DNA of 64,000 nucleotides from Pristiophorus japonicus (Eukaryota), in NCBI RefSeq assembly GCF_044704955.1, contig NC_092000.1:10540001-10604000 (forward strand), written 5' to 3'. The translations under genes were made by a program, and so were the position numbers. Positions 33,524 to 41,977 of the stretch are shown piece by piece. A model generated the notes under the pieces. The model saw only the letters and a list, made by a program, of their open reading frames with translations. It was not told the DNA's origin and made no database searches. Every line of letters begins with the position of its first letter. Position 1 is the first letter of the stretch.

Positions 33524-34249
33524 TGTAATGTGTGTACCCGCGAGTATGCTCACAGGTTTGTAGAGCTCTTGAGTTGTGAGTGGCTTAGCCAGTCACATGA
33601 TGTTCACAAGACTCAATAAAACCTCGGCCAGTTGGTTTCGGGAAATCCATGATGAGGCAGGTGGTTGTGAGCCTGGTGGATGAACTGGTAACGTGGCCTT
33701 CTCGTAGGACTGCTCCTAGGCACGGCCAAGGGGGGCCATCAGCGGTCCAGGCAGCGGGTGGTCGAGGGGGGCATTCAACCTGACTGCCTGCCTCTCTTCC
33801 GCAGTTACATCCGAGCCAGGATGTCCCTGGAGATGGAGCACGCGGTGTCCACAGGTACGCTCGCGGCCTTCCGTGAGAGGTGGGCGCCGGAGGGACTGGA
33901 GTGCATCATCACCCCCAGCAACCAAATTTTAATTTGATCATTTCAATTCAAAGTTTAATTTGCCGGTTTTAGTGCCCCGCCTCCTCCTTTAGCCAGGGGG
34001 CACTTGTGTAATTTCTGTTTTTAGTGCCCAAAAAAAAAAGGAAGGAAAAAAACGGGGCACTGGAAAAAACTTATTTTGGAGTGTGACCCACCTTGCAGGA
34101 GGAATTTGTTTAAAGTGAACAACTAAAATAGTTGAACTGGTAATGTGTAGTGCGATTGTTAAACCTTTGCTAATAAACCAACTAGTTCTTAATAGCAATG
34201 TCTTGCTATGAATTCTTAAGCAAAGGACTCAGGAAACAAATACATTACA
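33524..34249 (+). mobile_element. LTR-like element copy B (complete, ~274 bp without insert), probable solo LTR
   Basis: 8-bp terminal inverted repeat TGTAATGT...ACATTACA; two AATAAA motifs; flanks GGCAG / GGCAC. Confidence 0.78.
33692..34132 (+). mobile_element. Tx1-clade element 3' fragment inside LTR copy B
   Basis: Same ORF2 end and 3'UTR as units 1-2; 11-bp TSD TGAACTGGTAA (33681-33691 and 34133-34143); ends AAAATAGT. Confidence 0.87.
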
Positions 34250-34390
34250 GGCACTGCCCGAGCTAGGAGTCTCTTCCTTCCCCCTCCCCCTTCCATACAT
34301 GGGACACCCCCTGCCTTGACTCGTGCACCCGGTGGAAAGTGTCCCCCTCCCAGTCCTCCATCTGACGTCGCTGTCATTTCTTCCGGGCAG

Positions 34391-34448
34391 GTACGAGGTG
34401 GCCCCGCGCTCCGACAGCGAAGACAGCGGTTCCGAGGAAGAGGAAGAG
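34391..34448 (+). CDS. SMARCA4: SMARCA4 exon 13
   Basis: ggcag|GTAC; YEVAPRSDSEDSGSEEEEE; GAG|gtgaga; 58 nt. Confidence 0.94.
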
Positions 34449-36367
34449 GTGAGAGCAAAAAAAAAGGGCACGCAGCCTGTCTAGATGCTAGCGTGCAGGA
34501 CACCTCGTTATAACGTGCATCTGATGGAGCCGTGCATCTAGACCACGGGGAGCGTTATAACGGGAGTGGTTCCCAGCCACTCCAATCGCCCAGCCCAGAT
34601 TGTTCTTCCAGTCCTTTGACGTTGTCTTTGCTTATTTTAAGAACTACTGATGATGTTGTTAAGCTGCATAGTGCTAAAAGCAATGATCATAATCCCGCTG
34701 GGCCTCACTCCTGCGTATTGATACAGTGCTTTATCCTTTTTGTCTCGGCCGCATTCTAAAGTCGCCACGGCCGTTTTACATCTTGTCCCTTTAAAATGCA
34801 ACAGCAGACAAAGCGGGGCGCGCTGTTTGGGGAAAGTCGCTGGCTGGAGCAGGGGCGACTGCAAACTGTTAATTTTTGGATACAGTGCTTTTTACTATTT
34901 TTTTTCATGAACTGTCTTTAAAATCACGTCAGGATACGACAGACTGGAGGCTGCTAATCATGTCGGAGGACAGGTCTCGTTCGGGACTGCTGGTAAGCAC
35001 ATTAGAACGAGCGTAAGGCTTCCGTGAGTCTTCACGTTGTTTGTGAGCGAACTGGCTAATTCTGCCCTGGAATAGGGGGTCGCGTCCCCAACCAAGCACT
35101 TTAGTGCCCCCTCCATTTTGCTCCCCTCTCCTGAGGATGCTGATCCTTGCTGGGGTACAGTTTGCACGCTAGCCAAGCACCGTCTGGTACCTTACCAAGG
35201 TGGCTATTCTTTGAGGCAGGGGGAAGAGAAACCGAGTCTGGATCATCTGCGATGCCCTCTACGCGTCTAATGGCCTGCACAGATTATAAGCTAACCTGTC
35301 CTCACCCAGCGACACCCTCATTCTACAACAGGAGCAGGAGCACTGGCTGATTATTTCCCTCCCCCCCATCTCTAACCCTGAGGCTATTTTCACTGCTCTA
35401 ATGCTGAAAAATCTGTGATTGAACCTCAGACCTCCTGGACTATATGGCGGAATACTGCACCAGGCAGTGTATCTGTCGAGCTACCAGCAGAGTTGGAACG
35501 GTCGAGTGCTTTAACTGGATTTGTCCCCTGATCTTGCTGTGAGTCTCCGGGACAGTCCAGTTGAGCCATTAACGGCACAGATTGGACAACCGTACTTCCA
35601 GTAGAAATTAATTTTTGTTTCTCATTAAGAATTTACCTTTTGACTCCTTAACCCGTGAACATTCATAAGTTAGGTGGTGGGGTGCAGGATTGAACCCACC
35701 CCGCAGGGTGTGCTGATCTCAGCTGTGCTACTGGAGTGCTGAGAAACACCAATCAATCATGGCCCCACAGGCAGGGGGAAGGAGTCATTCCCCTGGCCAC
35801 AGTTGTGCGCCTCCTAGTGGTACTCGGAAGCAGATTGCCTAGCCACTTGGCCACAAGTAGGGGAGATTGGAAGGCAACGCAACATGTTAAAGAATGTATC
35901 TCGAGTCAATCCATGTGTCTTTTAGCAGGAAGTAATCAAGAGTCTTAGAATGTACTCGCGCTATTAATACTGGGAGTGCGGACAGTGACCCTACAGGCTT
36001 ATGCTGAACTTGGCGGGGGTGGGGTGGAGTGGAGGGGAGACTGGGAGGGGCAATAGTATAGATGCTGACCTTTCACCTCTGGGACCTGAGTGCAAGTCTA
36101 GCCCAGGCTGCAGGATGAGAGTGTGCTGTTACTCTGCTGCAAAGATCCTGTGGTCATGAGGGGATGGGCTGCAGCACAAAGCTGGACTGCCGATATAAGT
36201 ACCCTACTGCATATAAGGTGCAGTAGGGGGATGCTCACCTGAGGCAGGGGATTGAGGCGGAGGAGAGGGCGATCACACCGACACCTGGCCGAGCTCGGAA
36301 TGGGAAGACTTCAATTGCCCAGCACCGCCTCCTTCAACTCGATGAGCACAATTGTTTGTTTAAAAAT

Positions 36368-36830
36368 GGGTACGGTGGCATAGTGGTTATGTTTCTGGAT
36401 GAGTAATCCAGTAGGCTGGACTAATGATCCAGAGACATGAGTTTAAAATCCCATCACGGCAGCTGGGGAATTTAAATTCAGTTAGTTAAATAAATCTAGA
36501 AAATAAAAAAGAGTTAGTATCAGTAATGGTGACCATGAAACTACCGGATTGTCGTAATAACCCAACTGGTTCACTAATGTCCCTTAGGCAAGGAAATCTG
36601 CCGCCCTTACCCGGTCTGGCCTATATGTGACTCCAGACCCACACCAATGTGGTGGACTCTTAACTGCCCCTCTGAAATGGCCCAGCAAGTCACTCAGTTG
36701 TCCATTCAAAAAAAATACAGCAGCGGATCAAGAAGACGACTCACCACCATCTTCCCAAGGGCAATTAGGGATGGGCAATAAATGCCAGCCTTGCCTGCGA
36801 CGCCCAGATCGCATGAATACTAAAAAAAAA
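36368..36830 (+). mobile_element. tRNA-headed SINE with a LINE-derived tail
   Basis: A box TGGCATAGTGG, B-box-like GAGTTTAAAATCC; tail shared with 28230-28335; head fragment also at ~29362-29460. Confidence 0.7.
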
Positions 36831-40299: not shown

Positions 40300-40706
40300 A
40301 AGATTGGGAATCTTTTCTCTAGGCTGAGGTCGTTAAGATTATTAATAGGTTCGGTAGGGTAGACGTAGAGAAGATGTTTCCACTTGTGGGATGGGCCCGA
40401 TTTAGGGGCCATAAATATAAGATAGTCACTAATAAATCCAATAAGGAATTCAGGAGAAACTTCCTTAACCAGAGAATGATTAGAATGTGAAACTCGCTGC
40501 CACAGGCAGTGGTTGAGATAAATAGCATAGGTGCATTTAAGGGAAAGCTGGATGAGGGAGAAAGGTATAGAAGGTTATGCTGATGGGGTGAGATGATGTA
40601 GCGTGGGAGGAGGCTCATGTGGAGCATAAACACTGGCACAGGCCACTTGGGCCGAATGGCCTGTTTCTGTGCTGTATATTCTGTGTAATTCTACGTAATT
40701 CTATGC
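40300..40706 (+). mobile_element. CR1 3' fragment whose tail abuts the exon 16 acceptor
   Basis: caggagaaacttccttaaccagagaatg...gggccgaatggcctgtttctgtgctgtatATTCTGTGtaATTCTACGtaATTCTATGcag. Confidence 0.85.
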
Positions 40707-40708
40707 AG

Positions 40709-40872
40709 GTTAAAGGTCTGGAGTGGCTGGTCTCTCTGTACAACAACAACCTGAATGGAATCCTCGCCGATGAAATGGGTCTGGGAAAGACCATTCAGAC
40801 CATAGCCCTCATCACGTACCTCATGGAACACAAGCGCATCAACGGACCCTTCCTCATCATAGTACCTCTCTC
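40709..40872 (+). CDS. SMARCA4: SMARCA4 exon 16 (SNF2 ATPase motif I / Walker A)
   Basis: tgcag|[59 protein letters not shown]|gtaagg; 164 nt. Confidence 0.97.
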
Positions 40873-41080
40873 GTAAGGAGAAACCCGCTCACTCGCGTCT
40901 CTACCTCCCAGAGGTTGCGGGAGGAATGTTGGCCAGGACACTGGGAGAGCTCCCCGTTGCCCTTCTTCAAAGAAATCTTTTGCATCCTCCTGCACCAATG
41001 GAGCTGATGGAGCCTCAGTTTAACATCTGTGCCGAGAACATCAGGGGAAAAGGATTCCACGGCTCTCCCAGATCCTACGG

Positions 41081-41977
41081 TGTAATATATTTGCTTTGTG
41101 GGTTCTTTGCTTAAGAATTCATAGCAACACATTGCCATTAAGAACTAGTTGGTTTATTAACAATCACACTACACATTACCAGTCCATCCACCAGGCTCAC
41201 AACCACCTGCCTCATCGTGGATCCCCTGAACTCAACTGGCTGGGGTTTTATTGAGTCTTGTGAACATCACATGACTGGCTAGGCCACTCACAACTCAACA
41301 GCTTCATAACTATTTTAAGTTTCACCTGTAAATCAAGTGCCCCCTGGTTAAAAGTCAGGGGAGGGGGGAGCACTAAAACCGACACAATTAAACAAATTAA
41401 ACTTGGACACTCAACTGAATCAAATTAAAATTTGGTTGCCAGGGGTGATGATGCACTCCAGTCCCTCCGGCGCCCACCTCTCGTGGACGGCCGCGAGCGT
41501 ACCGGTGGACACCGCGTGCTCCATCTCCATGGACACCCTGGCTCGGATGTAACTGCGAGAGAGGCAAGCAGTCGGGCTGAACAACCCCCTCGACCGCCTG
41601 CTGCCTGGACCAGCTAATGGCCCCCTTGGCCATGCCCAGGAGCAGTCCTACGAGGAGGCCTTCCAACCTACCCGTTCCCCTCCGCACCGGGTGCCCAAAG
41701 ATCAGGAGTGTGGGACTGAAGTGCAACCAGAATTTGAGGAGCAGCCCCTTCAAATAATGGAACAGGGGCTGCAACCTCACACATTGCACATACACATGGA
41801 ACACAGACTCTTCCAGACCGCAGAAATTGCAGGCGGCCTGGGAGGCTGTGAACTGACTTCAAAACTGATTGCACGGAACTGCTCTGTGCAACACCTTCCG
41901 GGCCAAGTCCCCAATAAATAAAGGAAGGACTCCCAAATAGAGAGCACTCCATTGGGCCAACAGCTCTACAAACCTGT
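41081..41977 (-). mobile_element. LTR-like element copy C (41081-41309 plus 41958-41977)
   Basis: Begins TGTAAT; aligns with 4954-5195; resumes after the insert as CAACAGCTCTACAAACCTGT, matching copy B. Confidence 0.75.
41310..41957 (-). mobile_element. Tx1-clade element, 5'-truncated, inside LTR copy C
   Basis: FHVYVQCVRLQPLFHYLKGLLLKFWLHFSPTLLIFGHPVRRG; imperfect TSD CAACAGCTTCATAA / CAACAGCTCTACAA. Confidence 0.87.

Follow-up and report, generated by a model that had tools for sequence, protein, structure and literature searches.

Comparison with described systems

Long interspersed nuclear elements (LINEs) of the Tx1 clade that target another transposon are an already known kind of system. 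The pair described here, a Tx1-clade LINE and the long terminal repeat (LTR) of an old Gypsy retrotransposon, was noticed in 64,000 nucleotides of Pristiophorus japonicus DNA (contig NC_092000.1, positions 10,540,001 to 10,604,000; hereafter, the window, i.e., the whole stretch that was analysed) and was followed through the genome. In the sections of Kojima (2015, PMC4494074) used for comparison, the crocodilian elements Tx1-8_Crp and Tx1-4_AMi prefer specific LTR retrotransposons, most crocodilian Tx1 families (the Tx1-Mar group, which clusters with Keno on the reverse transcriptase [RT] tree) prefer Mariner-N4_AMi, and one, Tx1-9_AMi, prefers Harbinger. The same sections describe two hot regions in one host, family-specific use of these regions, and tandem insertions around the target site duplication (TSD), and they raise and then reject hitchhiking of Tx1 on its host. 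The present system is similar in that a Tx1-clade LINE prefers another transposon, uses two family-specific regions, and forms tandems. As far as those sections go, it differs in that the vertebrate lineage is another one, a Gypsy LTR serves as the host, the insertions at both sites are co-oriented, and occupancy has been measured; moreover, the head of full-length elements at the second site is derived from the LTR here, whereas a U1/U2 head is described there. Because the target is a Gypsy LTR, the Tx1 element is not filed under the Tx1-Mar group. The closest named protein is that of Tx1L of Xenopus laevis (44% identity), an element that also targets a resident transposon; that host is a DNA transposon, Tx1D (cited in the same parts of PMC4494074), whereas it is an LTR here.

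R1 of Drosophila belongs to another LINE clade and targets 28S rDNA. According to parts of Stage and Eickbush (2009, PMC2718515), R1 makes a fixed bottom-strand nick, has a TSD of ~14 bp, and leaves off-target copies; its arrays arise when a further copy enters the TSD on the resident's 5' side, and its full-length transcripts carry 5' tags of target origin, for which annealing to the target has been proposed. Array growth on the 5' side and target-derived 5' tags recur in the system described here, although, relative to the site, the tag is taken from upstream sequence in R1 and from downstream sequence here. For Drosophila jockey, 6 of 10 dimers have distinct 5' truncations, which were read as double insertion in the part of McGurk and Barbash (2018, PMC5932611) that is relevant here. 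The Tx1 tandems resemble these in being LINE copies with a target duplication between them; distinct breakpoints are the mark of double insertion there, whereas here double insertion also seems to account for dimers with a common breakpoint, in which the upstream unit is chimeric. Neighbours with a common 5' breakpoint are not described for crocodilian Tx1 in the sections of PMC4494074, nor do the parts of PMC2718515 describe for R1 a new copy that takes over the truncated 5' end of a resident, as proposed below. No account of this Tx1 family or of same-breakpoint chimeric tandems was found in a literature search that left Repbase and most subscription journals outside its range. The present analysis adds measured occupancy, a subfamily that has moved to another target site and captured a head, and 5' ends that appear to be templated by the resident copy.

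Insertion of Tx1 into the Gypsy LTR

Exact matches to a 22-nt motif of the LTR number 6,569 in the genome; because 27 of 94 LTR copies located through other anchors retain this motif intact, the total is estimated at ~23,000 LTR copies, or ~0.1% of the genome. A natural empty copy (L002) served as the reference LTR in place of the rebuilt 274-bp host. Among the first 70 motif matches, all of which are on contig C1, a script scored 24 LTRs as filled by Tx1, 27 as empty, and 19 as unscored; reading by eye moved one empty and two unscored LTRs to the filled class and two unscored LTRs to the empty class, giving 27 filled, 28 empty, and 15 unscored. Occupancy is thus not low (27 of 55 scorable LTRs). 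Among 29 5' LTRs, 18 are filled, 9 are empty, and 2 are unscored; the ratio of 18/27 compared with 27/55 overall comes from a sample too small to claim an excess. Locus L208, where the Tx1 copy ends in non-LTR DNA, was scored as neither filled nor empty. The best matches to the uninterrupted left part of the window's copy B favour empty copies and were excluded from the rates, and a sample anchored on left junctions (16 of 30 filled by eye), which is biased by TSD length, was used for array analysis only.

The distribution was also read from the side of the insert. A motif at the end of ORF2 has 9,021 exact genome matches and is intact in 64 of 170 copies, so that ~24,000 Tx1 3' ends are expected. 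Of the first 30 matches, 17 are inside the LTR, 8 are outside, and 5 could not be assigned (two pairs represent the same or near-duplicate loci), and 21 of the 29 best matches to the 3' part of copy C are inside the LTR, with 8 outside. When these samples are pooled, the LTR holds 38 of the 54 resolved copies (of 59), or ~70%; i.e., one sequence type accounts for more than 20% of the flanks, the level by which Kojima (in the sections of PMC4494074 cited above) recognises target-specific Tx1 families. Since the LTR makes up so small a part of the genome, this pattern is far beyond what chance would give under random insertion.

Within the LTR, exact junctions number 3,651 at a main site (LTR nt 37 to 49) and 237 at a second site (site 2), and reversed-pattern controls returned 0. 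The target duplication is 12 to 13 bp in 41 of 65 units, and no antisense Tx1 insertion in the LTR was seen in the LTR and Tx1 samples. Targeting is therefore site specific and involves independent insertions; neither random positions nor a single ancestral composite, either of which would have spoken against the sequence-only reading of the window, was found. We regard it as highly probable from these sequence patterns that Tx1-clade LINEs inserted independently, after integration of the host, at two fixed sites in the old Gypsy LTR, likely through endonuclease recognition. The Tx1 endonuclease would likely recognise the two sites and prime reverse transcription there, with a bottom-strand nick at LTR nt 36/37 (or 158/159) and a top-strand cut 10 to 13 nt further on.

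Several points qualify this explanation. Off-target copies (16 of 54, together with 16 of 30 in the site-2 subfamily described below) indicate a preference rather than strict specificity, and the samples were anchored on exact motifs or best matches, come mostly from the beginning of a single chromosome, and were partly classed by eye. Where they can be read, the off-target duplications are ~9 to 14 bp. The off-target flanks of the main family mostly begin with GT (T is second in 14 of 21, with some rows mis-called), so off-target copies may keep a short form of the preference, GT in the main family and GA in the site-2 subfamily.

The off-target copies are also what would be expected if Tx1 insertion were widespread and survival were limited to copies in harmless LTRs, and LTRs are presumably neutral DNA. 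Such a filter would have to produce single-base precision, one orientation, and subfamily-specific sites in a 5.9-Gb genome, most of which is equally neutral, and we consider it scarcely credible.

In five loci (L349, L357, L362, L365, and L368), main-site Tx1 units lie inside other Tx1 copies. One spot, just before ORF1, recurs in four loci, and in one of the five the unit is at the start of an LTR-derived head. Both spots, in the 5' regions of long Tx1 copies, are secondary self-targeting sites.

The sequence-only reading had offered hitchhiking as one possibility. Under this model, Gypsy would have copied a few Tx1-carrying LTRs, and the composites would descend from a few insertions. The near-uniform orientation and site of the copies would fit this, as would the similar ages of host and insert (paired LTRs are ~10% apart, and the left and right target copies of Tx1 differ at 16 of 209 sites, a value biased low by the detection rule) and the recurrence of a few 5' breakpoints at 3 to 4 loci each. 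LTRs were found in direct pairs, and the two LTRs of one element were compared. In 10 candidate Gypsy elements scorable at both LTRs, 4 have both LTRs empty, 3 have one filled, and 3 have both filled with different inserts, so that none of the six Tx1-carrying pairs shares an insert. Pairing of these elements by flanking duplications was confirmed in five, failed in one, and was unreadable in the rest. Across loci, 5' breakpoints coincide in only 115 of 9,248 pairs (1.2%); where Tx1 copies from separate loci have the same breakpoint, they hold 20 of 1,187 rare-allele sites in common, which is the background level, and their 3' untranslated regions (UTRs) mostly differ. The same insert did not recur in many dispersed LTRs as a co-mobilised composite would. 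Hitchhiking is therefore largely refuted, and we give it a very low probability. The target copies are slightly less diverged than the LTR pairs, which fits the arrival of Tx1 after Gypsy, in agreement with independent insertion into integrated LTRs.

Tandem arrays and their shared 5' breakpoints

Many filled LTRs carry Tx1 units in tandem, and the order of these units is polar. In 33 neighbour pairs that retain both 3' UTRs, the longer UTR is upstream in 20 and downstream in 3. The G-tail class, which is the least diverged, precedes the T-tail class in 14 cases and follows it in none, and rare alleles number 470 in upstream units versus 569 in downstream units. Taken together, the UTR order, the tail order, and the rare-allele counts indicate that arrays grow at the 5' target copy. 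Array A of the window has the same unit order as the others. The duplicated target on the 5' side presumably stays the preferred site, so that arrays would extend towards the left arm of the LTR.

An unexpected feature is that neighbours often have a common 5' breakpoint (within 4 nt), as observed in 29 of 48 pairs at 27 loci; it is absent in the window's own arrays. In 18 of 20 same-breakpoint pairs, the two UTRs are less close to one another than each is to three or more units from different loci. Rare-allele sites are shared at 59 of 347 in nt 5 to 240 but at only 9 of 368 beyond, compared with 1.5% in controls; by bin, sharing is 26% in nt 5 to 60, 19% in nt 60 to 120, and 12% in nt 120 to 240, and then falls to 2 to 3%. 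Neighbours with different breakpoints share 3 of 142 such sites. Since the UTRs are nearer to other loci and allele sharing is limited to the 5' part, same-breakpoint neighbours are not plain duplicates.

The simplest reading of these alleles is that the first 50 to 250 nt of the new unit were copied from resident DNA and that the 3' part came from new RNA. We think it probable that this copying takes place during integration: where a resident Tx1 is present, the new cDNA would pair with it, and the 5' junction would be finished by copying the first 50 to 250 nt of the resident, so that the new unit would be chimeric, its breakpoint old and its 3' end new. New L1 or R2 cDNA recombining with homologous DNA is a known phenomenon.

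Two other routes to a shared 5' end were weighed. One begins with a tandem duplication, produced by unequal exchange between the 13-bp repeats, after which a later Tx1 cDNA replaced the 3' part of the upstream copy. This would explain a common breakpoint with a new tail upstream, and the UTRs of 2 of 20 pairs are about as close as any. It also predicts many whole-length duplicates, whereas sharing beyond 240 nt is at background and the UTRs differ in the other 18 pairs; we consider this route improbable. In the other, the new copy arrived with its own breakpoint and acquired the front of the resident only afterwards, when it recombined with, or was converted by, the ancestral allele or a sister copy. 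The same chimeras, polarity, and 5'-limited allele sharing are predicted, but a rare event would be needed in ~60% of arrays, between partners that would be several per cent diverged, and different-breakpoint neighbours show no allele sharing. This route is unlikely, though less so than the duplication. Against copying during integration stand the 11 of 29 shared-breakpoint pairs whose first 240 nt have no rare allele in common, the weak 5' microhomology, and the pooling of rare-allele sites over pairs from 27 loci, which are not independent and make the p-values too small; in addition, copying at integration and recombination shortly afterwards cannot be told apart from sequence alone.

Little is understood about the way in which a LINE 5' end is joined to its target inside living cells, and this step restricts gene insertion based on retrotransposons. 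One genome with thousands of arrays, in each of which older units adjoin newer ones, would allow the step to be counted, both in how often a neighbour serves as donor and in tract length. If insertions are indeed finished by homology, arrays that resemble tandem duplications record successive invasions. For annotation, same-breakpoint dimers are not to be taken as duplications, and the composites of LTR and Tx1 will be mis-built as a single repeat family.

The left arm of the LTR is wholly or mostly missing in many filled LTRs (L205, L216, L225, and copies A and C of the window), perhaps because target DNA was deleted at the 5' junction.

Site-2 subfamily and its LTR-derived head

The Tx1 insert of copy B in the window represents a distinct subfamily with its own LTR site (nt 159 to 168). 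Its tail type has 402 exact genome matches; among the first 30, site 2 holds 14 (12 assigned by script and 2 by eye) and the main site none, and 15 of the 16 off-target flanks begin with GA. Among 14 full-length 5' ends, 12 carry ~30 nt that correspond to LTR nt ~170 to 200 before the element's own 5' sequence (one of the twelve is partial). A diagnostic position reads C in 7 of 8 heads compared with 9 of 112 ordinary LTRs, and the corresponding target copy on the right carries the base of the LTR. This difference indicates that the head travels with the element. In full-length site-2 elements, the LTR-derived head would serve the same pairing role as proposed above for resident Tx1 sequence.

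Taken as a whole, a broader reading suggests itself, which we put forward only tentatively: Tx1 would finish most of its repeat insertions by homology, the tandem-like arrays would be time-ordered invasions, and one subfamily would have moved its target by 122 bp along the LTR and captured a head, possibly being transcribed from the promoter of the dead host. Two sister subfamilies that use different sites in one 274-bp target form a natural pair for mapping the residues that determine endonuclease specificity.

Insert and host elements

The class of the insert is set by its best protein match, according to which it is a Tx1-clade LINE; its ORF2, of the kind with an apurinic-type endonuclease and an RT, is most similar to Tx1 elements. 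A natural 613-residue piece matches X. laevis Tx1L ORF2 (44% identity over 99%, E = 1.9e-157), and long copies cover residues 1 to 1292 of this protein in pieces at 31 to 75% identity. A putative zinc knuckle in ORF1 gives a weak zf-CCHC match (E = 0.004) that is below the curated cut-off. The copies have 5' truncations, a fixed 3' end, and a TSD. At L299/L300 (G000 C1:91.57 Mb), a stretch of Tx1 ORF1 occurs twice, 100% identical, inverted, and 1.2 kb apart, which reflects either a recent inversion-duplication or an assembly artefact.

The host had been called LTR-like from sequence alone, and the paired repeats, primer site, purine tract, and pol confirm it as the LTR of a decayed Ty3/Gypsy retrotransposon. 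Genomic copies are ~274 bp, start with TG, end with CA, and are in many cases flanked by 5-bp duplications. The primer-binding site directly follows the LTR end at 29 exact junctions and matches a tRNA-Ser(GCT) gene (one of three loci scanned), and a polypurine tract precedes the 3' LTRs. The internal stretches, which are broken, contain RT, RNase H, and then integrase, i.e., the Gypsy order (Pfam), and an RT piece is 69 to 71% identical to K02A2.6-like Gypsy polyproteins. No Pfam match was found in two pieces of the gag region and one piece of the gag/protease region. A DNA transposon (Ginger- or MITE-like) was considered as the host and was ruled out by the four features named at the start of this paragraph.

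Paired LTRs are 81 to 95% identical (median, 90%; 13 candidate pairs) compared with 89% between unrelated copies; because pairs are about as diverged as unrelated copies, an old burst of Gypsy is indicated. The flanking TSDs of the paired LTRs match at 5 of 5 positions in three pairs, at 4 of 5 in two, and not at all in one, the rest being unreadable. The sampled Gypsy copies are old and broken whether or not Tx1 is present. One Gypsy copy (L233/L262, G000 C3:322.69 Mb) consists of two LTRs around ~190 bp of internal sequence, and its flanking duplications match. The proteins that are 69 to 71% identical to the RT piece (P0004-P0010) include those of a sea urchin (Lytechinus), and named fish entries are lower (~50%); horizontal transfer of the Gypsy element is a possibility.

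Composites in the SMARCA4 window

Exon matches at 3223 to 43580 on the plus strand place the SMARCA4/BRG1 gene in the window, and the protein encoded by one exon is identical to that of the elephant shark gene. These matches confirm that the three host copies, A, B, and C, are in three different introns. The six Tx1 pieces reported previously are all inside host copies and in the sense of the LTR (four in A, one in B, and one in C), and the host DNA totals ~770 bp, in line with the earlier figure of less than 1 kb. No Tx1 DNA was found outside the host copies in the 64-kb window, where two weak protein matches (23 to 26%) belong to another LINE type. The claim that all hosts are filled and that no Tx1 is outside them therefore holds within the window; genome-wide it does not, as roughly one LTR in two is empty and, of the 54 Tx1 copies that could be resolved, 16 are outside. 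Given the genome rates (~0.5 cubed for three filled hosts and ~0.7 cubed for none outside), both the "all" and the "none" of the window are small-sample effects.

Copy A, on the minus strand, consists of LTR nt 37 to 274 at 4954 to 5193, including the right-hand 13-bp target copy, and lacks the left arm; it was delimited by blastn with the natural empty LTR copy (90% identity) and by the junctions. It is followed by an array of four Tx1 units with 13-bp target copies between them, all on the minus strand. Piece A4 (5194 to 5867), which is 5' truncated with a short 3' UTR, is likely the oldest unit. After a target copy at 5868 to 5880 comes piece A3 (5881 to 6959), 5' truncated with a long 3' UTR, and after a second at 6960 to 6972 comes piece A2 (6973 to 7262), with the end of ORF2 and a long 3' UTR of the G-tail class, which is likely younger. 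The last target copy (7263 to 7275), placed by junctions like the other two, is followed by piece A1 (7276 to 7497), which is 3' UTR only, also of the G-tail class, and adjoins intron DNA with no LTR left arm.

Copy C (41081 to 41977, minus strand) was struck at the same LTR position as copy A, nt 37 to 49, and the two carry inserts with different 5' ends and 3' UTRs, as had been noted from the sequence. Its main part (41081 to 41307) is LTR nt 37 to 274 with the right target copy at 41295 to 41307; piece C (41308 to 41956) is 5' truncated with a short 3' UTR; and the left end (41957 to 41977) consists of the left target copy (41957 to 41969) and the last 8 nt of the LTR left arm, the first ~28 nt of the LTR being missing. 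Unlike A and C, copy B (33524 to 34249, plus strand) carries its insert at the second LTR site and is complete, with 5-bp flanks of GGCAG and GGCAC. The left part (33524 to 33691) is LTR nt 1 to 168, with the main site empty and the left 10-bp target copy (33682 to 33691) at its end; piece B (33692 to 34133), a member of the subfamily that prefers site 2, follows; and the right part (34134 to 34249) begins with the right target copy (34134 to 34143) and runs to LTR nt 274. All of these parts are on the plus strand.

The last 20 kb of the window (43689 to 64000) is a 29-bp satellite of ~700 copies that starts ~100 bp past the SMARCA4 exon match and likely lies in an intron of this gene. Another LINE-like repeat with weak RT similarity is present as several nested copies of 1.5 to 2 kb in both orientations (9992 to 11937, 13543 to 15553, 18585 to 25359, and 27701 to 28084), and its region contains 34- to 35-bp minisatellites at 20779 to 21269 and 23116 to 23399.

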